40,190 bases of DNA. It comes from a virus. Its lineage: Duplodnaviria; Heunggongvirae; Uroviricota; Caudoviricetes. The stretch covers positions 1-40,190 of IMG/VR virus record IMGVR_UViG_2698536576_000006. One strand, written 5' to 3'. Made by a program: the position numbers and the translations under genes. This document shows, piece after piece, positions 1,410 to 15,479 of the stretch; the first letter of the stretch is position 1, and each line of letters starts with the position of its first letter. The notes beneath the pieces are model-generated. The model was not told the DNA's origin. It worked only from the letters and a program-made list of their open reading frames with translations, and did no database searches.

Positions 1410-2543
1410 ATGAATTATGAAAAATATCATAGCACAAACAGAAGCAAGGGTTTGCGAACCTTCTGCTACTTAATTTATTATGTGCAGGTGATTTTTAATG
1501 TGATGAAGTGTTTTATGACTCGCGGAAACTTTGATTTTATAAACTCTAACGTGGTTTTCTCAGAAGCCGATAAGTCATTGTGGATTGATCTCATTAACAC
1601 CGATTGTATTTGGTATGATATGATAATTAATCCTCCTGATGATATAAAAACAAATAAGATAATAAAGAACTATCTCAGAATCATGGAAAAATATACGAGG
1701 GAAAACTGTGAAAAGAGATTTATTTATTTCTTAGGTTCAAGAAAAAAAGTGAGGTTTTCAACCAAGAAACAGCCTAGGTATAACCCATTCACAAAAAATA
1801 TAGTTTTCACTCTGTTAATTGGCAAAGAGGAGCGAAAGCTTCGGATAAAATATCCTTTTTGCACGTTTACGCAGAATGGGGTAGTGAAGATAACTCCAAA
1901 TGTTAGAGTAACTGAGAAATTTCTCTACATTGAAGATGAAAATGGCAATTTATGTGTGATGTCAGTTCATGACTTCGTAAACGGACATTATATTGATTTA
2001 GGCATTCATACAGAAGTGCATTACGTAGGATATACACGTCATCCGCATCGGCGCCCTGTTGATTTTATTCACCGTGGCTTATCAAAGATGCTGTATAGCG
2101 TTTCAAATGACGATAATGATTTTTTTGTTTGTTTTAGTATATTTAATCCAAGAATTATATCTCTGAATAATAAATGCAATGTGGTCTTTAATATTTCAAA
2201 TTCTCTACTGGATGAAATTGATGTTGATAATGAGGGGCGAATTATTGAAAACTGCTTAATACGTTACTTTGATCCTAAGCTTCAAGATGATGACAAGGAA
2301 AGTAAAAGGTCAGATTTAAATAAAATGTTTATGGACTTGGTGGAAAATAAAAAAATTAAAAAAATATACGTTAATTTTCAATATAAAAGGAATAATGAGT
2401 ATTTCTGCTTTTACTCTAAAGTTGTTCCGCCGAAATTTCATCATTTCTTTGTGCTGGATTTTTCTGATGACAAGATAAATATTGATAGAGACCAGGATAT
2501 GATGACTCAGATGGCATTGTGCATGGGGTATTATAATTATTAA
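1410..2543 (+). CDS. Hypothetical AT-rich cargo protein, no recognisable domain
   Basis: 377-aa uninterrupted ORF in a visibly AT-rich block (Asn/Lys/Ile/Phe/Tyr-rich product) between int and the leftward early operon. Start uncertain: ATG 1410 or internal ATG near 1503. Confidence 0.45.
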   Translation: MNYEKYHSTNRSKGLRTFCYLIYYVQVIFNVMKCFMTRGNFDFINSNVVFSEADKSLWIDLINTDCIWYDMIINPPDDIKTNKIIKNYLRIMEKYTRENCEKRFIYFLGSRKKVRFSTKKQPRYNPFTKNIVFTLLIGKEERKLRIKYPFCTFTQNGVVKITPNVRVTEKFLYIEDENGNLCVMSVHDFVNGHYIDLGIHTEVHYVGYTRHPHRRPVDFIHRGLSKMLYSVSNDDNDFFVCFSIFNPRIISLNNKCNVVFNISNSLLDEIDVDNEGRIIENCLIRYFDPKLQDDDKESKRSDLNKMFMDLVENKKIKKIYVNFQYKRNNEYFCFYSKVVPPKFHHFFVLDFSDDKINIDRDQDMMTQMALCMGYYNY

Positions 2544-2764
2544 TATTTCGCCTGATACCAACTCAAAATCTGTTTTGTCGCATCCATTGTGGATTAATAT
2601 TCAGAGGTAAGGGGTATCAGCAGAATTTATATTTTGCAGGATGATCATACAATACATGATATATTGTCTCTAGCAACATCTGTTTCTGGCACAGAGCATA
2701 TAGTCAGATTACGTTTGGTTCTGTGCCATCGATGGATACTATCTCACCTCTTGGCTAACCCCCA

Positions 2765-2993: not shown

Positions 2994-3530
2994 TCATGCG
3001 CATGTGCGTAACTCCGATAACTCGTTAAAGCGTTCCATAAACAGCCCGTAGGCATGGCCAGGAGCCAGAGGAATAACTTTGAACATCTCTGTTGCTTGGA
3101 TACCTTCCAATACTGGCCAGAAAGAGCCATCATCTAGCCCGAGATCGCGGCGTTCGGTTGCCAGCATGATGAGATCGGCATATTTCACAGGCGTGCTCAT
3201 AACCGGGGGTAACCCGTATTTCTCACGGATTACGGCGTCTATTTTTTCTTCCATCCGTTTATAGTCAGGAAGAAGGCGTTTCAGTGGCGCGGGGATGTCC
3301 TGACAATACGCTTCTGTTGCATCATGTATTAACGCTTCAAAAGCAAATTCCTGCGGTACCAGTTGGCTGCAAAGCACCGCATGTTGGGCAACGCTGTAGA
3401 AATGTGAAAGATGTCCTGCAAAGCGACAGATATTTGAAAGAGAAACCGCGATATCGTTAATAACGATGTCGTCTTTATTTATCCTGTCATAATAAAAATG
3501 CTTCCCGGAAAAAGTTTTAATAAATGACAT
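2994..3530 (-). CDS. HD-domain phosphohydrolase (YfdR-like prophage protein)
   Basis: Contains H...HD...D metal-binding signature (FAGHLSHFYSVAQHAV ... ALIHDATEAY). Start moved from ORF-track 3557 to internal ATG 3530 (MSFIKTF) because GGAG lies 6 nt upstream; gives 178 aa. Confidence 0.65.
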   Translation of the reverse strand: MSFIKTFSGKHFYYDRINKDDIVINDIAVSLSNICRFAGHLSHFYSVAQHAVLCSQLVPQEFAFEALIHDATEAYCQDIPAPLKRLLPDYKRMEEKIDAVIREKYGLPPVMSTPVKYADLIMLATERRDLGLDDGSFWPVLEGIQATEMFKVIPLAPGHAYGLFMERFNELSELRTCA

Positions 3531-3657
3531 TTTGTTCTCCACGTATATGCGCTGCACCGCGTTGAATTCTGGTAAAAGGAAGCCCTCACCATCCGGCGAT
3601 TATTGAGTCAATTACGTTTCCATAAATGCCCCCGCAGGGGCATTTGCAGTAATGAAA

Positions 3658-4482
3658 TCAGGCGGTGAAAGTACCAATAAAGGTTTCTACTTTGCTGTCC
3701 TTGAATTTCTCAACAAGCAGATCACGAAATTCGTTAGCCATTTCTTCCTGCACTGCTTCCAGCTGAATAATGCGCAGAACCAGTACAGGACGATCGCCAG
3801 TGATAATGCTGAGGCGTAATTTAAACGGACGTTCTTTCAGGCCTTCAAACGGAACGCATTTAAATTCAAATGCCACAGGCATAATATCTTTGGTCTTCGC
3901 TTCGACAGACTCCATCAGGGAGCGTTTGCCGCTGAAGTCATTGTCTTCAAAATCAGCGGTCTGGTTTGCTTCAATCGTGATTTTACGGACTGCCGCAGCC
4001 GCTTTTGTTGCCTGAATAGCATCACCATTAGCATCAAAGCCCACAAGGTAGTCGGCCCAGTCTTCGAGCCATTCTGCCAGTGACTTCTGGGAGTTACGCT
4101 CACCGTTAACAGACAACAGGGCAGAGAACGGTGCTGTCTTTTTCAGTTTGAGAGTGGCGGTGTTATCTGCGTGACCTGGTTCATCAATAGTACCCAGGTT
4201 AAGTACACTGACGGCACGCATATTATCAGCATCGATAAAGCAGCGGGTGCCTTCATCTGCAAGATCTTTAGAATAACGGGTAAAGTCATCGATGCTGGCA
4301 GTGGAAAGCGCACCACGGAAACGGAAGCGATTTAAATTAAATTTTTCCAGATCATGAATGCGGAAATTCTCAGGCAATGCCACAGCATCGGCACCAATCT
4401 TACTGATAATTTCATTAACACCCTGAGCAGAAATAAGGGTATGGATTTGATTAATTGCGGTTGCGTCTAAGTTCTGAGACAT
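3658..4482 (-). CDS. Conserved phage early protein (YfdQ-like, DUF2303-type), function unknown
   Basis: 274-aa ORF with GAGGA RBS 8 nt upstream. Length and position beside an HD hydrolase match the yfdQ-yfdR pair of E. coli KplE1/CPS-53-like prophages; identity recalled, not verified. Confidence 0.5.
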
Positions 4483-4547
4483 AATAAGTCCTCACTATAT
4501 AAAGATATTCAGTGATGAGATAAATAATCAGTTAATTAAGAACGATA

Positions 4548-4910
4548 TTAATGACCTGCTGCGCGTAATTTTCCGTCAGGCTCACCGGCAAGAGTCAGTA
4601 ATTGTCCCTGGTCTTCCTGCAGAATAGTCAGGCGACCACCGCGATTGACATACATCGGCGTTTCGGTGGTGTCTTCTTCGGAAATTTTCCCGCGGTTAGT
4701 CGGGCGAACATATGAGAGTTTGTGTTTGATTTTCACACGGTTCTCATCAAATGGTTCGATTTCCAGGTTGAGTGAGACCTTACCTTTGGTTTTCGTGTTC
4801 ATCACACCGGAAGCGACTTCACTGAGAACTGCGCCGATTTTGGTTTCAAATACGCCGCCGTCCAGCTCCCCGATAAATGCCTGCACATCAGTACCGCGTT
4901 CGCTAGCCAT
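4548..4910 (-). CDS. Hypothetical early-left protein (121 aa)
   Basis: ORF track gives 4548..5141, but AGGAGC lies 7 nt upstream of internal ATG at 4910 (MASERGTDVQ). The upstream extension runs into a GC-rich structured region and is unlikely to be coding. Confidence 0.55.
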   Translation of the reverse strand: MASERGTDVQAFIGELDGGVFETKIGAVLSEVASGVMNTKTKGKVSLNLEIEPFDENRVKIKHKLSYVRPTNRGKISEEDTTETPMYVNRGGRLTILQEDQGQLLTLAGEPDGKLRAAGH

Positions 4911-4954
4911 TTTGCTGCTCCTCATCATATCGACCCTGCAAGGTCGGTTGGTTT

Positions 4955-5215
4955 CTCCACAAAACAGAGAAGAACACCTGCGGTGGCAGCCGCCCGGATG
5001 GATTGGGTTATGAGCCCGTCGTCCGGTGATGCTCTTCTCTGTTTTGTAAAAAGGACGGTACCAGCCGGAAGCAAGTGTACAAACTGATACCGCCAACGCA
5101 GTGGCAGTTGTGGCGGGGTTGTCACTCAGGCGTATGGTCAACCTGACAACCCGGTGTCCTCAACGGGGAAAGAGTAACCCCGCCATACTTACCGCCGCGC
5201 CATTTCGCGGATTAC
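4955..5215. other. GC-rich highly structured noncoding segment (candidate regulatory RNA or leader structure)
   Basis: Perfect 15-bp long-range inverted repeat (4959-4973 acaaaacagagaaga with 5033-5047 tcttctctgttttgt), a 9-bp pair (5112-5120 ggcggggtt with 5176-5184 aaccccgcc), and nested shorter stems. No convincing ORF. Confidence 0.3.
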
Positions 5216-5754
5216 CACAATGCTGAGAGCACTTAGCCAGTTACGGCACCACACTTTGTCGCGATTCCATAAATGCCCTCATCGTTGCACCCTGGTATCT
5301 TCCCAGGCGTCAAACCGAACCGCCACGCTGGTTAGGCGTCTTATCAGCATTATCATTGACTTGCACATTCCGGCTACTTGGTTTGTTTGCCCGAGCAAGG
5401 AGTGGATTGTCCCCTTTAACGTCTCCAGACCGCTAACGACGCATGTGCCATACGCCGTGTTACAATAAAGTGTTCGGTATTAGTTACCAAAGAGACGATT
5501 ACTCTTATGGTTGAATGTAATACTCCTGTTGAATATTTTCTTGCTTACTATTTGTTTTTTCTATATAGCGAATTGGTTGTTTTGTTTACATAATAAGAGA
5601 TTTTCTTAAATAAGTTTACATTGTTTTGTCTTGCTATTTTTTAAAATTAAAGAACAATGAATTGTCGCTATCAGTAATTATTCTTTATGAAGTGTTATAA
5701 ATAACCCCCTGCTTTTGAGTTTTGTACGCAGTGTTTTTAGTTGTCGAGGACATT

Positions 5755-5964
5755 ATGGATAATCAAAATACTCCTGTTTTTGATGTATGTGGTTGGTACT
5801 GTGTACCAGTTAAAGATCATAATTCAGTTATAGTTCAACTGTCCTGCAAACAACCACCATTTGAATCTGATAAAATTATCGAAAGTCCAATATATTCTTT
5901 TCCCATAAAAGAAATACCAAATCTCATAAATACATTACAAAACATTTATGAAGAAAATAATTGA
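5755..5964 (+). CDS. Small hypothetical protein (69 aa), AT-rich
   Basis: ATG at 5755 preceded by GAGGA (4-nt spacing) and followed by a hairpin plus T-run at about 5986-6010. Convergent with cI; could be non-coding. Confidence 0.3.
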   Translation: MDNQNTPVFDVCGWYCVPVKDHNSVIVQLSCKQPPFESDKIIESPIYSFPIKEIPNLINTLQNIYEENN

Positions 5965-6074
5965 TTATAAATCCAGTTCAAAAGTGAAGCGTCCACTTGG
6001 GCGCTTTTTCATTTACGAATCATTCCGGTCTTCGTATGCCCCGGACGGCTACTTCGTGGGCGTCCTGCCTGTTC

Positions 6075-6121
6075 GATATCTTATGTAGGTACATTATGTA
6101 TCTCTAAGGTACATTGTCAAG
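6075..6121. promoter_or_regulatory. Left operator-like cluster (OL/pL candidate) with GGTACA half-site repeats
   Basis: GGTACATTATGTA (6088-6100) and GGTACATTGTCA (6108-6119) share the half-site found in the palindromic operator on the other side of cI. Confidence 0.45.
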
Positions 6122-6123
6122 TA

Positions 6124-6147
6124 TAAAAAAACCTGCCGAAGCAGGTT
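6124..6147 (-). terminator. Rho-independent terminator downstream of the repressor gene
   Basis: On the minus strand reads aacctgc-ttcg-gcaggtt followed by a T-run (A-run 6125-6131 on plus), 13 nt past the cI stop. Confidence 0.65.
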
Positions 6148-6159
6148 CATAGACATTGA

Positions 6160-6834
6160 TCAGGCTTTAATTTTGTATCTTCTTGGTTTTCCTGAGAAAA
6201 TAACTGTACCAATGATAGAGCAATTACCGTTTATCTTAATGTAAGGCTCAGGCCAGTTGGGGTTTAATGCTTTGAGATAACGCTGTGTCCCGTCTTCTAT
6301 CAACCTTTTGAAGGTGGTTTCACCTGTATCGTGCATCAATGCTATAACGTCATCGCCGTGGCAGGCTGGTACTTCTGGATCGACAAAAATCATGTCTCCC
6401 GGACGGTACTCATCAATCATTGAATCACCAATCACCCTCAATATATAAGTCATTTCGCCACAGGGTACAGGGCAGGGATACGTTTCTGTTGTGCTCAAAT
6501 CAACCTCAGAATAGCCAACTTCTTTCCATGCTCCGGCCTGTACCCATGATATGACAGGGACTAACGTTATTTGTTTATTAGTGATTGAAACATCAGGTTT
6601 TTTTGTGATGTTCGTTGTCTGGTGTTCTTGATCAAGCCATCCGACAGGCAGGTCGAAACATTTTTCGATGTGCCGTGCCATGCTGTCACCGATATTTTTA
6701 GTAGCGCCATCCCCCATAAACCTGCTGGTCTGGGTAGGCTCGCGATCAATCATGGTGGCAAAGGATGAATTTCCGCCAACACCATCTCTCAGTTTTCTGG
6801 CGTTAGACCGCCGGATGTCATGGATTGTTTTCAT
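6160..6834 (-). CDS. cI: CI-like prophage repressor (N-terminal HTH, C-terminal LexA-type S24 autopeptidase domain)
   Basis: 224 aa. C-terminal region carries the S24 motif (VIGDSM) typical of LexA/CI autocleaving repressors; divergent to a Cro-like gene with operators between. Confidence 0.85.
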   Translation of the reverse strand: MKTIHDIRRSNARKLRDGVGGNSSFATMIDREPTQTSRFMGDGATKNIGDSMARHIEKCFDLPVGWLDQEHQTTNITKKPDVSITNKQITLVPVISWVQAGAWKEVGYSEVDLSTTETYPCPVPCGEMTYILRVIGDSMIDEYRPGDMIFVDPEVPACHGDDVIALMHDTGETTFKRLIEDGTQRYLKALNPNWPEPYIKINGNCSIIGTVIFSGKPRRYKIKA

Positions 6835-6850
6835 AACGAAATTAAAACCT

Positions 6851-6924
6851 TTGTACCGATAAGGTACAAGTATCTTGAAGGTTCATTTTAATCATGTAAT
6901 ATGTATACTGGAGGTACATGTTGT
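6851..6924. promoter_or_regulatory. Right operator/promoter region (OR with pR and pRM candidates)
   Basis: Perfect palindrome TTGTACC-gataa-GGTACAA at 6851-6869 and a second GGTACAT site at 6912-6918. Candidate pR -35 TTGAAG and -10 TAATAT (16-nt spacer) just upstream of the cro-like ATG. Confidence 0.55.
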
Positions 6925-7125
6925 ATGAAAGCGTATTGGGACTCTTTAACCAAAGAACAGCAGGGCGAGTTGGCCGGAAAAGTTGGCTCAACACCAGGCT
7001 ACTTACGGATGGTTTTCAATGGTTATAAAAAAGCCAGTTTTATGCTGGCTAAAAAACTTGAGCAATGCACGTCAGGTGCAATTACGAAATCTGACTTAAG
7101 ACCGGATATCTATCCGAAAGATTAA
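6925..7125 (+). CDS. Cro-like / YdaS-family small HTH regulator
   Basis: 66-aa ORF from ATG 6925 (MKAYWDS) with GGAGG upstream. C-terminal LRPDIYP motif and size match the Cro/YdaS family; divergent from cI. Confidence 0.7.
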   Translation: MKAYWDSLTKEQQGELAGKVGSTPGYLRMVFNGYKKASFMLAKKLEQCTSGAITKSDLRPDIYPKD

Positions 7126-7156
7126 CAGAACACCTTCAATTTTTAACCACAGAACG

Positions 7157-7720
7157 ATGAGGCTAACCGTGGGTAAGCATCACTGGAAAGTAGAAAAACA
7201 GCCTGAGTGGTACGTGAAAGCTGTCAGAAAAACTATCGCGGCGTTGCCGGGGGGTTACGCTGAAGCTGCTGAGTGGCTGGATGTAACAGAGAACGCTTTA
7301 TTCAACCGCCTTCGTGCAGATGGCGATCAGATTTTCCCGCTGGGATGGGCAATGATTTTACAGCGCGCGGCTGGCACTCACTACATTGCGGATGCTGTCG
7401 CACAGTCTGCTGGTGGGGTGTTTGTATCGCTTCCTGAAATTGAGGAAGTAGAGAACGCCGATATAAACCAGCGCCTGCTGGAAGTCATCGAACAGATCGG
7501 GAGTTACTCAAAGCAGATTCGTTCGGCAATCGAAGATGGGGTAGTGGAGCCACACGAGCAGACAGCAATTAATGATGAGTTGTATCTGTCGATTTCGAAG
7601 CTCCAGGAGCATGCGGCACTGGTCTACAAAATTTTCTGCGCTCCAGAAAAGAGTGACGCCCGCGAGTGTGCAGCTCCGGGCGTCGTGGCGTTTTGTGTCT
7701 GTGGAGAAACTAACGCATGA
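7157..7720 (+). CDS. Early regulatory protein, possibly YdaT-family (CII-position gene)
   Basis: Second gene of the rightward early operon, directly after the Cro-like gene. Stop overlaps the next start (ATGA). Family assignment tentative; start may be GTG 7169. Confidence 0.4.
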   Translation: MRLTVGKHHWKVEKQPEWYVKAVRKTIAALPGGYAEAAEWLDVTENALFNRLRADGDQIFPLGWAMILQRAAGTHYIADAVAQSAGGVFVSLPEIEEVENADINQRLLEVIEQIGSYSKQIRSAIEDGVVEPHEQTAINDELYLSISKLQEHAALVYKIFCAPEKSDARECAAPGVVAFCVCGETNA

Positions 7721-8553
7721 ACAGTTTAACGGCAAATAACCGTTTGTCGCAACAGCTGGTGGTCAGCGTCGCTGAACACCTGTTGTTACGGCATGAATGC
7801 AGATTACCAAATCACCTGGCTGTAAGTAACCACAGAGAACTTTACCTGACTGTGGGGGGCGAGTTGTGCAGGAACTTAACCGCTGGTTTCGTGACGGAAG
7901 AGGGCTTTATGTCCATGTTATTCGTTGGGAGCCAGAAACACAGCGCGTTATCTATCTTCGCAAAGACTACCCGCATGAGTGCTTTAGTCCTTTGTGGAAA
8001 TTCAGGCGTGATTTTGTTGAGTGTGAAGGACCACCAGCACATTGATTCTGCCATTCCGGGACGTTACACTGTTCAGGCACCTTATAAAGCGGGTGTCGGG
8101 ATTGGCGTCCTGGAATTGCATACGGCGACAATTGGCGCGTTAGCGTCTTTTTTGTTGCTACAACTCAGCTATACCCAAATTATGGTGGGCTGGGTGGGGG
8201 CACCGAAAGGTGCGCCGGTTTCCGTATGCGCCGGTTACGCCAACCCTGCTCAGTTCACCACCAGCGAAATTGGCGTTTCCGGTGGTGGAAGTTATCCATT
8301 GCATACGGAGGCTGCCATCATGGCTACTGTCCCAGCCCTCTCTCGTCTGAATGATGAAGACTTACATAAACTCAGTTATGTAACAACTGCACTACGTGCT
8401 CTGCGCAAGGTAACTCTTTCGGATCCGCAGGCGCATCAAGTTCTGGTAGAAACCCTTCTTAACTTGCAGGCTGAACGTATTCGTCTGGCGGATAAGGCTA
8501 ATTTTCATATTCACTGTCTCCTGAATATCAGCGGAGGGCATCGTCATGCTTAA
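7717..8553 (+). CDS. Hypothetical early protein (278 aa)
   Basis: Translationally coupled on both sides (ATGA overlap at 7717, ATGCTTAA overlap at 8546-8553). No recognisable motif; no Walker A. Confidence 0.45.
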   Translation: MNSLTANNRLSQQLVVSVAEHLLLRHECRLPNHLAVSNHRELYLTVGGELCRNLTAGFVTEEGFMSMLFVGSQKHSALSIFAKTTRMSALVLCGNSGVILLSVKDHQHIDSAIPGRYTVQAPYKAGVGIGVLELHTATIGALASFLLLQLSYTQIMVGWVGAPKGAPVSVCAGYANPAQFTTSEIGVSGGGSYPLHTEAAIMATVPALSRLNDEDLHKLSYVTTALRALRKVTLSDPQAHQVLVETLLNLQAERIRLADKANFHIHCLLNISGGHRHA

Positions 8554-15325: not shown

Positions 15326-15401
15326 GCCGACTTAGCTCAGCAGGCAGAGCAACTGACTTGTAATCAGTGGGTCACCAGTTCGATTCCGGTAGTCGGCACC
15401 A
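15326..15401 (+). tRNA. tRNA-Thr (anticodon UGU)
   Basis: 76-nt cloverleaf folded by hand: acceptor GCCGACT/AGTCGGC, D-loop with GG, anticodon stem ACTGA/TCAGT with loop CTTGTAA, T-loop TTCGATT, 3' CCA encoded. Near-identical to host thrU as recalled. Confidence 0.9.
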
Positions 15402-15404
15402 TAT

Positions 15405-15479
<75 letters not shown>

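Follow-up and report, generated by a model that had tools for sequence, protein, structure and literature searches.

What stands between the early-left promoter (pL) of this prophage and its first leftward gene? In the window (the whole stretch of DNA analysed, 40,190 nucleotides of IMG/VR record IMGVR_UViG_2698536576_000006), the leftward operon consists of yfdP, followed by yfdQ (DUF2303) and yfdR (5'-deoxynucleotidase), and the preliminary description had expected an N-like antiterminator gene upstream of it. In the interval from pL to the first of the leftward genes, no N-like ORF has support and we saw no other sign of such a gene, and the relatives Ayreon, cdtI, mEp460 and Stx2c phages present the same N-less layout. 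A search by eye for boxA and boxB returned only GUGCUCUCA, which resembles boxA weakly and for which long-range pairing is the better explanation. The region is instead the untranslated leader of the prophage early operon, built of exchangeable folded RNA modules (Table 1). A structured leader RNA rather than a protein gene had been proposed, and the conservation and compensatory base changes found in homologous phages bear this out. That RNA had been taken for a single element in the place of N; the structured non-coding RNA is real, yet it comprises several modules and does not look like a substitute for N.

Table 1. Features of the leftward early leader and its surroundings, in window coordinates.
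Feature	Positions	Strand	Remarks
pL-type early-left promoter	6093..6120	-	TTGACA-16 nt-CATAAT
Initial ~110 nt of pL transcript	5976..6085	-	common to SfIV-, F1055- and mEp460_4F5-type phages
AT-rich insertion (moron)	5467..5975	+	antisense to pL transcript
69-aa ORF	5755-5964	+	GAGGA ribosome-binding site; terminator 5986-6007; annotated WP_021559686
M1	5223..5466	-	conserved leader segment
M2	5105..5222	-	118-nt four-way-junction RNA domain
M3	5048..5104	-	DicF-/sRNA-17-type 3' module
M4	4959..5047	-	89-nt element; 20-bp basal stem topped by three-way junction
Final leader segment 5' of yfdP	4911..4958	-	
yfdP	4548..4910	-	first gene of leftward operon yfdP-yfdQ-yfdR; gene served by leader

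The promoter, which was rated strong, sits immediately past the terminator (6148-6129) of a repressor of the S24 peptidase/LexA family and is overlapped by operator repeats AGGTACATT at 6087-6095 and 6107-6115. Taken alone, the start of its transcript did not fold significantly (z = 0.3), and the hairpin that it contains (6007-5986) is the plus-strand terminator of the inserted ORF. At the opposite end, the final leader segment carries a conserved GGAGAA (4958-4953) and a small hairpin, CGACCUUGCAGGGUCG (4946-4931); yfdP has the ribosome-binding site GAGGAG at 4923-4918, its AUG at 4910 and an alternative in-frame AUG at 4928. Between these ends, the stretch at 5500-5720 is AT-rich, as previously noted (20-34% GC), but it does not belong to the structured RNA, of which it had been considered a part: it lies upstream of the 69-aa ORF within a later insertion that carries this ORF on the opposite strand and is unrelated to the RNA modules. 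The insertion was absent from all 50,697 phage records, and in Ayreon M1 is joined straight to pL with nothing inserted between them. No Pfam or PHROG family was found for the 69-aa ORF. One point against the small-RNA reading given below is that the approximately 600 bp of AT-rich DNA between pL and M1, antisense to the ORF, could reduce or stop pL transcription before the modules are reached.

M1 begins with the hairpin ACGGCGUAUGG-CAC-AUGCGUCGU and contains the conserved blocks GGUAGCCGGAAUGUGCAAG and CACCAGCGUGGCG. It was 95-97% identical in Ayreon/cdtI/Stx2c-type phages and 77% identical to the P1 sequence between tRNA-Ile and ban in the ban operon, with no Rfam match and an unremarkable fold (z = -0.4). 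Its GTTA-N14-GTTA repeat has been taken as an ArcA site in the study that described the small RNA sRNA-17, whose 'promoter' and qRT-PCR primers map onto M1 (PMC7719688). Since the qRT-PCR amplicon of that study begins in M1, transcription must set in upstream of the 5' end that was mapped for sRNA-17.

Downstream of M1, the sequence becomes GC-rich (52-60% GC in 4955-5215), and the inverted repeats and nested stems that had been seen in it are present at 4959-4983/5023-5047, 5097-5120/5176-5199 and, nested, at 5116-5124/5144-5152. The minus-strand RNA from 5230 to 4905 folded with z = -6.75, and none of 100 shuffles folded equally well. When the whole window was compared with Rfam at gathering scores, only isrK, C4 and two tRNAs were returned, all of them outside the region, so that the covariance scan advised earlier assigned no family to it; permissive scans of 4400-6300, 4920-5240, 5205-5480 and a related Klebsiella phage copy (type B, below) produced chance-level matches only, and a literature search for the core sequences of M2, M3 and M4 found no match. 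Alignment of the homologues, advised as well, did reveal compensatory changes in M2 and M4. Among 5,426 complete E. coli genomes, 4,743 had a match to at least a portion of the query, the M2 piece being the most frequent, and only 30 contained the complete region. Phages with 99-100% identical yfdP carried unrelated cassettes, or nothing, where M2 would be; the single yfdP protein query used here returned relatives of 98-100% identity only, not diverse loci, and still revealed this exchange of modules.

M2 is formed by a closing stem, UUGUGG/CCACAA, and three hairpins, and its minimum-energy fold is the comparative fold. It was 93% identical to the E. coli K-12 Qin sequence that abuts DicF on the 5' side, and its homologue in the 190-nt long DicF is the 5' domain of that RNA; M2 was also found in P1/P7 ban leaders. 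In the comparative alignment 94% of cells were paired, compared with 31-61% in slid controls, six pairs changed on both sides and hairpin H1 was retained despite differing sequences. The corresponding covariance model (R2) scores 135 bits. The loop of the third hairpin (H2), GGUUGACCAURCGCYURAG, showed no variation in the sampled copies, and core conservation in M2 and M4 is subject to a collection bias, both alignments having been gathered by sequence patterns. In every locus examined (lambdoid phages, Qin and P1/P7 ban), M2 was located downstream of a repressor-controlled early promoter or a repressor gene, where annotated, and in all sampled copies it was followed on the 3' side by a hairpin and U-run of varying sequence. 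Two candidate pairings of M2 were rejected. A cis target of its loop in M1 (9-nt complementarity, 5129-5137/5448-5456) was not kept in P1, and the other best sites varied by context; a GGCGGGG/CCCCGCC closing stem failed because P1 and copies L023 and L040 change its 5' side and compensate locally in H1, not distally.

The hairpin that follows M2 in the window is M3, with 11-13 bp at 5094-5054 (GGCGGUAUCAG...CUGGUACCGUC), a folding energy of -17.9 kcal/mol and a U5 run at 5052-5048. Hairpin and U5 constitute an intrinsic terminator, and the U5 is likely the 3' end of a small RNA. A simple terminator scan did not list M3; its loop of 15 nt exceeds the 3-8 nt allowed by the scan. Among the sampled copies, the M3 position was occupied by many alternative hairpin-loop sequences. 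An attenuator-style alternative pairing, CCGCCA/UGGCGG, was discarded because it was not conserved in Ayreon-type sequences. In a duplex-energy scan for ftsZ pairing, even true DicF reached only z = -0.9.

M4 is the novel part of the leader, absent from prior descriptions, and the rest is a chimeric variant of a known small-RNA locus. The 25-nt arms of its inverted repeat include a perfect 15-bp base, M4 alone folded with z = -7.27, and the minimum-energy fold agrees with the comparative one. Covariation over 44 sequences was clear, with 96% of cells paired as against 41-50% in slid controls and 10 pairs showing compensatory changes. M4 was detected in at least 120 IMG/VR loci and 24 species genomes, across Enterobacterales and, through covariance model R1, in P1/P7, where the P1 copies overlap the annotated ORFs plp and upl. 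In most leader-type copies a hairpin and U-run precede it on the 5' side, the copy of Mixta tenebrionis (L239) being an exception. Within the three-way junction, arm B is GCGG-CUGCCA-CCGC, and arm A (CCGGA...UCCGG) carries CGGGCUCAUAACCC (5018-5005), which agrees at 14 of 14 positions with the E. coli tRNA-fMet gene (nt 28-41, sequence verified) and represents part of its anticodon stem-loop, namely three G-C pairs and the CUCAUAA loop. M4 lacks the cloverleaf, the D arm and the T loop, and as its 'acceptor' it has a 20-bp duplex that forms part of an mRNA leader. ARAGORN reported no tRNA in 4800-5500, M4 belonged to no Rfam family, and the Rfam tRNA model did not match M4 or the Klebsiella type B copy at E values up to 10. 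M4-like elements were interleaved with tRNA genes in P1/P7 and Klebsiella phages, and the tRNA-sized type B relative of the latter ends in NCCA and lies directly 3' of tRNA genes. It is conceivable, if rather doubtful, that with M4 phages carry a tRNA-like RNA of a new class. Such an RNA would present the anticodon arm of the initiator tRNA (U33, CAU, A37 and three G-C pairs) on a three-way junction with a long stem, and might serve to decoy or sense some factor that recognises this arm. Possible partners would be VapC anticodon nucleases that cleave tRNA-fMet, MetRS, or the 30S P site with IF3. If so, M4 would protect or tune translation initiation soon after prophage induction, and the P1/P7 copies, together with the NCCA-ended ones in the tRNA clusters of Klebsiella phages, would be the same device in free-standing form. 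Being well supported, widespread and unannotated, and mimicking the initiator tRNA anticodon arm, M4 is an obvious subject for work on phage-host tRNA conflict.

Altogether, these results point, with a probability of roughly 0.7, to the leader of pL-yfdPQR being a small-RNA locus of the DicF/sRNA-17 kind combined with an attenuator, in which M2 and M3 would form the RNA, M4 would come into play on read-through and the AT-rich stretch would have no part. Expression of an RNA of about 190 nt, its processing by RNases III and E and termination are described in papers on homologues, and by analogy the chimera of M2 and M3 would probably behave in the same way. Termination at M3 and an endonuclease cut at the M2 closing stem, made by RNase III in the K-12 homologue, would yield a stable RNA of approximately 175 nt (5222-5048). 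A shorter form produced by RNase E would be possible, but M3 has neither the A/U-rich RNase E site of DicF nor its single-stranded seed, so that a short small RNA of the Hfq type might not arise. We infer that the targets of the M2+M3 RNA would be host or phage mRNAs, reached in trans by way of the M3 loop (UUUGUACACUUGCUUCCGG), and not the sites in ftsZ, xylR and pykA that DicF uses. M3 would at the same time be an attenuator, and yfdPQR would be reached only by read-through transcripts. On these, M4 would fold directly past the U-run, and its long duplex, a likely RNase III substrate, would detach the small RNA and define the 5' end of the mRNA.

The same modules could also be mainly processing and stability signals for the yfdPQR mRNA without any function in trans, with RNase III acting on the long duplexes and RNase P on the tRNA-like shapes; the small RNAs of the homologues would then be by-products. 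The RNase III site in the leader of lambda N offers a parallel. The 20-bp duplex of M4 lies exactly between the terminator and the ribosome-binding site, the M4-like elements among phage tRNA genes fit this reading too, and RNase III of K-12 cleaves close to the stems that close the modules on either side of DicF (positions derived by alignment; PMC10448788; PMC9438474). We nevertheless consider it unlikely, since DicF is a proven regulator in trans (PMC5069750), the conservation of the M2 loop and the M4 core exceeds the needs of a cleavage site and the loops at the M3 position are varied, as expected for changing targets.

More improbable is a processive antiterminator of the put type acting in cis, for which M2, or M1 together with M2, would bind RNA polymerase and carry it past M3 and later terminators in replacement of N. 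As with the HK022 put RNAs, which overcome downstream terminators by binding the zinc-binding domain of the RNA polymerase beta' subunit, this is structured non-coding RNA that a lambdoid phage without N makes early, from pL. In lambdoid phages and in P1/P7 alike, the element is found downstream of an early repressor-controlled promoter, M2 stands directly 5' of an intrinsic terminator that has to be passed for yfdPQR expression, and its invariant loop suggests a binding site. The resemblance to cis-acting antiterminator RNAs, which the preliminary description had put forward, did not extend to sequence or structure: neither R1 nor R2 found a match in the HK022 immunity region, where putL and putR are expected, and put RNAs are two-stem structures of about 70 nt (PMC9378689), whereas M2 has a different fold of 118 nt with a four-way junction. 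M2 is moreover replaceable by other cassettes in front of practically the same yfdP, and it precedes a terminator that works in the K-12 homologue, where a large share of transcripts terminate at DicF directly after the M2 equivalent and others read through (PMC10448788).

We give very little credence to M2 being a diverged C4-type antisense immunity RNA that blocks downstream translation by pairing in cis, as the P1/P7 C4 does on icd/ant. M2 and C4 are similar in general build, with internal hairpins enclosed by a closing stem, both elements occur in P1/P7 and the Rfam C4 model (RF01695) weakly matched 5100-5199 (15.6 bits, E = 2.2), but this score is far under the gathering score of 45, R2 misses the true C4 of the window (8178-8265) and no site complementary to the M2 loop was conserved across contexts. 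Small proteins are hardly to be expected either: contrary to the earlier statement that no minus-strand ORF of at least 60 aa exists, there is a 66-aa GTG ORF (4925-5125) and the yfdP frame is open up to TTG 5141, a 39-aa ORF (5279-5398) and plus-strand ORFs annotated in Ayreon add to these, and some phage records have hypothetical proteins over the region, but RefSeq annotation is empty here, the 39-aa ORF, the one covered by the search, had no Pfam or PHROG match, homologues differ by indels of +1, +2, +3, +4, +23 and +27 nt, several of them not divisible by three, and by whole swapped modules, the 66-aa ORF and the extended yfdP frame run across the structured modules, and base substitutions preserve RNA pairs by compensation.

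The closest known systems are DicF, sRNA-17 and the P1/P7 ban leader. The DicF locus (Qin dicBF operon of E. coli K-12) occupies the same position in a pL-like, repressor-controlled leftward operon, with an intrinsic terminator and U-run directly 3' of the conserved upstream domain and a downstream module that is again closed by a long-range stem. M3 and DicF share a 16-nt sequence, UUGGCGGUAUCAGUUU, a terminator of the GGCGG...CCGCC type and the U5. In K-12, DicF occurs as a 190-nt species with a 5' end made by RNase III and as a 53-nt RNase E product (PMC10448788; PMC9438474). Compared with it, M3 lacks 19 nt (a single gap in the alignment with K-12) that include the single-stranded 5' seed UUUCUGGUGAC, used on xylR/pykA (PMC5069750), and the loop directed at the ftsZ ribosome-binding site (AGUUUUACUCCG against CGGAGAGAAACU) is replaced by AGUUUGUACAC (compared by eye). 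The Rfam DicF model (RF00039, gathering score 48) gave M3 only 11.5 bits (E = 7.9) over model positions 13-52, and true K-12 DicF 76.7 bits. The leader analysed here differs further in its flanking genes, with no ydfABC upstream and yfdPQR downstream in place of dicB.

The earlier term 'riboregulator' was near the mark, since RACE and Northern blotting identified a homologous stretch as sRNA-17, a 193-nt RNA of E. coli K1 RS218 encoded between cI and yfdP of an mEp460-like prophage (PMC7719688). Its sequence, which we reconstructed from the published primers, begins at the stem that closes the neighbouring module and reaches to the U-run of M3. Both loci lie between repressor/pL and yfdP and present a closed multi-hairpin domain followed by a terminator; they share the first 9 nt (C[G/A]UUGUGGU), the CCACAAC linker and M3, with approximately 93% identity over the 3' 75 nt of sRNA-17 including the terminator hairpin. 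The internal domain of sRNA-17 (M2', ~115 nt) is unrelated to M2 and not alignable with it, identity therefore does not extend over the full 193 nt, and the version in the window would belong to the 'degenerative sRNA-17' of that study, which mentions neither a modular structure nor a relationship to DicF nor M4 (PMC7719688). Deletion of sRNA-17 raised yfdP about 95-fold (PMC7719688); given the primer design, this rise may be a cassette artefact rather than lost attenuation, and the effects of sRNA-17 on virulence and on yfdP induction may be cis effects on the operon leader.

In the P1/P7 ban leader, the 'dicF-like region' contains M2 at 76-82% identity just past the C1-controlled Pban, followed by a short hairpin and U-run, with M4-like long-stem elements and an M1 homologue farther along the same operon. 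There three tRNA genes lie among the modules, which extend over ~2.5 kb, the M2 closing stem has another sequence and the M4 cores read ACGGG[U/G]UCAUAUCCC. DicF (1989), the P1 'dicF-like region' and sRNA-17 (2020) are thus versions of one modular locus type that opens early phage operons, and the M2-type locus is very common in E. coli, yet Rfam holds no model of it. The combination of a closed 5' domain, or its alternatives, with GUUGUGG/CCACAAC linkers and a variable-loop terminator hairpin suggests that module exchange swaps the targets of these small RNAs.

The window is a lambdoid prophage (see the table for coordinates). The top promoter match within 4500-7200 (TTGACA-16-CATAAT, 6120-6093 on the minus strand) lay amid repeated AGGTACATT operators and directly past the repressor terminator, so we took the structured segment, in minus-strand orientation, to be the leader of the pL transcript, divided into modules M1 to M4. 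The start of yfdP is ambiguous. RefSeq uses 4910, for which a GAGGAG is better placed, and the Ayreon annotation uses an in-frame AUG 18 nt upstream (4928, minus strand). In the rightward early region, isrK and an adjoining C4 antisense RNA lie under the RefSeq ORFs DUF4222 and 'ash family' and constitute a P1/P7-like immI-type RNA immunity module within a lambdoid prophage.

Features of the window and of compared phage and prophage loci
Feature	Record	Position	Strand or direction	Remark
Integrase gene	window	left end		
yfdR	window	2994-3530	leftward operon	
yfdQ (DUF2303)	window	3658-4482	leftward operon	
yfdP	window	4548-4910	leftward operon	
M4	window	5047-4959	-	89 nt
M3	window	5104-5048	-	
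M2	window	5222-5105	-	
M1	window	5466-5223	-	
69-aa ORF	window	5755-5964	+	inside insertion 5467-5975; GAGGA ribosome-binding site; RefSeq WP_021559686
LexA/S24-type repressor	window	6160-6834	-	
cro-like gene and ymfL	window		rightward	
isrK	window	8077-8153	+	58.9 bits
C4 antisense RNA	window	8178-8265	+	80.7 bits
Two tRNA genes	window	15326-15398, 15405-15476	+	anticodon loops UGU (Thr), UCC (Gly)
Region with an M2 homologue	L007 (PP818812, 'Actinobacillus phage vB_Apl-pPE4')	2470-2760		87% identity
M4-like elements	L004 (P1, AF234173)	2825-2907, 3264-3352, 3489-3586, 3766-3846	+	model R1
M4-like elements	L005 (P7)	1829-1911, 2268-2337, 2474-2571	+	model R1
tRNA-sized RNA	L009 (Klebsiella phage GZ7)	2509-2578	+	after tRNA-Arg, downstream of gene Q
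Post-DicF module	L001 (K-12-type Qin)	~3920-3770	-	
Post-DicF module homologue	L314/L265 (prophages)			
Post-DicF module homologue	L010 (ST64B)	~2290-2420		

The preliminary description was largely right in what it observed. GC content was 52-60% over 4950-5250 and 20-34% over 5500-5750, the inverted repeats were present as described, and the minus-strand RNA 5230-4905 folded at -141.9 kcal/mol against -108.7 ± 4.9 for shuffled sequences (z = -6.75). Its reading as a structured RNA rather than a protein gene was correct, as the comparative alignment it had proposed revealed compensatory changes in homologues of M2 (6 pairs) and M4 (10 pairs). The AT-rich stretch was wrongly included in the element: 5500-5720 is the upstream region of a plus-strand 69-aa ORF that had been overlooked and, judging from sequence comparison, belongs to an insertion separate from the structured RNA. 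Specifically, homology with Ayreon and its relatives stops at 5466, the repressor-proximal promoter lying within ~50 bp beyond; 5467-5975 matched no phage record, and only 5976-6075 recurs, beside the operators of SfIV-, F1055- and mEp460_4F5-type phages. The insertion (27% GC, antisense to the pL leader) occurs in only ~30 complete E. coli genomes, and the complete 4911-5720 stretch in 30 out of 5,426. The 69-aa ORF had no Pfam or PHROG family and its terminator is the hairpin 5986-6007. In this prophage the connection with pL may be weaker owing to the 0.5 kb of inserted DNA.

For M2, we aligned 36 non-redundant copies from lambdoid phages, Qin-like prophages, P1/P7, a Salmonella phage and a phage recorded under Actinobacillus. 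They support a four-way junction with a closing stem (G)UUGUGG/CCACAA(C), a hairpin H0, a long H1 arm and a hairpin H2, which is also the minimum-energy fold of the single sequence. Pairing holds in 94% of cells across the closing stem, H0 and H2, compared with 31-61% with slid partners, and the six pairs are altered on both sides. H1 is maintained despite sequence change (CGGGG/CCCCG, CUGGG/CCCAG, CCAGG/CCUG, CAGGGG/CUCCUG), and RNAalifold added a GGU/ACC base to it, with U-A changed to C-G in P7. The H2 loop GGUUGACCAURCGCYURAG did not vary in the sampled copies, an invariance partly by construction, as most were gathered with this loop as search pattern; it was also present in the P1/P7 copies, found by BLAST. 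The covariance model of M2 (R2) found one copy in the window, with no match at its genuine C4 RNA or in the HK022 immunity region, and a relationship of M2 to C4 failed in both search directions.

In all sampled loci M2 was followed by a GGCGG...CCGCC-type hairpin and a U-run, and the loop/seed came in no fewer than eight versions (canonical DicF, window/sRNA-17, pPE4, L029, L018, L063, L040 and P1 types). Among 80 prophages with 98-100% identical yfdP, M3 and M4 were nearly always present and M2 in about one third; in the others it was replaced, between identical GUUGUGG...CCACAAC borders, by M2' (sRNA-17 type) or M2'' (homologous to the module after DicF in K-12). These replacements and the variable hairpins indicate that the leader is a chain of closed RNA domains recombining at short complementary linkers. 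The small-RNA cassette past M2 in the pPE4 record is a tandem duplication. This record resembles an E. coli Rac-type early-left region (DicA-like repressor, Kil, exonuclease VIII), which makes Actinobacillus as the stated host surprising.

A 193-nt small RNA, sRNA-17, was mapped by RACE and Northern blot to a >1-kb intergenic region adjoining yfdP in a mEp460-like prophage of E. coli K1 (PMC7719688). According to the published primers it extends from CGUUGUGGUGAAUGCGCAGG to ...GGCUGGUACCGCUCUUUU (PMC7719688); reconstructed from a matching locus, it measured 194 nt. The window RNA 5222-5048 (175 nt) begins with the same 9 nt and is ~93% identical to it over the final 75 nt, whereas sRNA-17 carries the unrelated domain M2' where the window has M2. 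By sequence, therefore, the window carries a chimera of a DicF-type 5' domain and an sRNA-17-type 3' hairpin, and its M2+M3 core is a new chimeric form of a known small-RNA locus. The published qRT-PCR amplicon starts at the beginning of M1, which places the start of transcription further upstream and makes the mapped 5' end a probable site of processing. Deletion of sRNA-17 raised yfdP ~95-fold (PMC7719688), which is consistent with a cis effect on the leader but could alternatively be explained by the cassette orientation that the primers imply. The 'promoter' fragment bound by ArcA in that study is exactly the M1 piece. In Ayreon-type phages the identity to M1 is 95-97%, and the P1 sequence that separates tRNA-Ile from ban reaches 77%. 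M1 contains conserved blocks and a starting hairpin with one compensatory pair, with no significant overall fold (z = -0.4) and no match in Rfam.

M4 lies directly 3' of the U-run and folds at -45.5 kcal/mol (z = -7.27) into a 20-bp stem and a three-way junction. Across 44 distinct sequences 96% of cells pair versus 41-50% for slid partners, and the ten compensatory pairs are spread over all three helices. Its arm A, CGGGCUCAUAACCC, matches nt 28-41 of E. coli tRNA-fMet at every position; we verified that tRNA sequence in the genome collection. At least 120 viral contigs contain the exact 22-nt core, as do 24 species-representative genomes, 23 of them across Enterobacterales (Escherichia, Shigella, Citrobacter, Enterobacter, Kosakonia, Leclercia, Klebsiella, Raoultella, Mixta, Pantoea, Erwinia and others); one labelled Chryseobacterium is probably contamination. 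Since the core was the search pattern, its invariance in these sets is by construction. Most of the 24 genomes show the order hairpin and U-run, M4, GGAGAA, small hairpin and ribosome-binding site, usually before a yfdP-like gene; Raoultella and Pantoea copies in other contexts and a Mixta tenebrionis copy without the preceding hairpin are exceptions. In two otherwise near-identical IMG/VR prophages (L318, L265), single-base core variants (CCC to CCA or CTC) break one of three G-C pairs, a sign either that cryptic copies are decaying or that such variation is tolerated.

The covariance model of M4 (R1), unbiased by the core, found M4-like long-stem elements in the ban operons of P1 (four) and P7 (three), and none beside the tRNA genes of the window. 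Two P1 elements and one P7 element carry the core ACGGG[U/G]UCAUAUCCCAAUCUAC, with GGG/CCC and UCAUA kept. In both operons the elements are interleaved with tRNA genes as arrays; the P1 copies with this core overlap plp and upl, ORFs annotated on the minus strand. Three P1 elements lie on the strand opposite these two ORFs, so that both may be mis-annotations. A tRNA-sized relative follows tRNA-Arg in Klebsiella phages. It combines an acceptor-like 6-bp stem, a long arm that includes GGGCUCAUAAUCC and a short hairpin showing covariation, and its 3' end is NCCA (ACCA or GCCA); ~10 loci in IMG/VR resemble it. Neither ARAGORN nor Rfam called a tRNA in the M4 elements or this relative, and the core sequence was absent from the literature searched. 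Follow-up work is best directed at M4 and at the cassette architecture.

As for other explanations, the modules may serve purely for RNA processing. The antiterminator analogy of the preliminary description was wrong: a put-like element is unlikely, as the leader has no similarity to the put RNAs of HK022, M2 can be replaced by other modules and a working terminator follows its homologue in K-12. Small proteins encoded in the leader are very unlikely. The preliminary description reported no minus-strand ORF of 60 aa or more, which does not strictly hold, as a 66-aa GTG ORF (4925-5125) is present and the yfdP frame is open to 5141; nothing supports translation of these.

The small-RNA reading draws on DicF. 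Some part of the query matched in 4,743 out of 5,426 E. coli genomes, most commonly window 5103-5220, whose homologue in a K-12-type genome (93% identical) lies between ydfC and dicB in the Qin prophage and ends 14 nt upstream of the Rfam-called DicF (76.7 bits). In K-12, RNase III makes the 5' end of a 190-nt DicF species and RNase E that of a 53-nt species, the 3' end arises by intrinsic termination or by an RNase III cut 19 nt further on, and the operon transcripts include terminated as well as read-through forms (PMC10448788; PMC9438474). Counting 190 nt upstream from the DicF 3' end leads to where the conserved piece begins, which identifies M2 as the 5' domain of 'long DicF'. The module after DicF in K-12 (GUGGUGAAUGCGGCUSAGCGCACGCGG ... 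GGAGGCACC) is homologous to the cassette that, in other prophages, stands in for M2 ahead of M3. Every copy has a long-range closing stem of its own, and the RNase III 3' end reported for 72-nt DicF maps to that stem.

Where DicF lies in K-12, the window retains UUGGCGGUAUCAGUUU and the hairpin with U5 (-17.9 kcal/mol in M3), whereas 19 nt including the DicF 5' seed are absent. As the loop also differs, the Rfam DicF model gave just 11.5 bits. DicF AGUUUUACUCCG pairs with CGGAGAGAAACU of the ftsZ leader (PMC5069750). The loop in the window, AGUUUGUACAC, lacks this pairing, whereas a loop of the L040 type, AGUUUCUCUCC, complements the ftsZ site perfectly over 11 nt. By homology, pL transcripts would pass M1 and M2 and mostly stop at M3, and a cut at the M2 closing stem, made by RNase III in K-12, would yield a ~175-nt small RNA. 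In read-through transcripts M4 would fold, offering in its duplex a plausible target for RNase III. Cleavage there would detach the small RNA from the mRNA of yfdPQR, in a similar manner to the cutting of module closing stems on either side of DicF.
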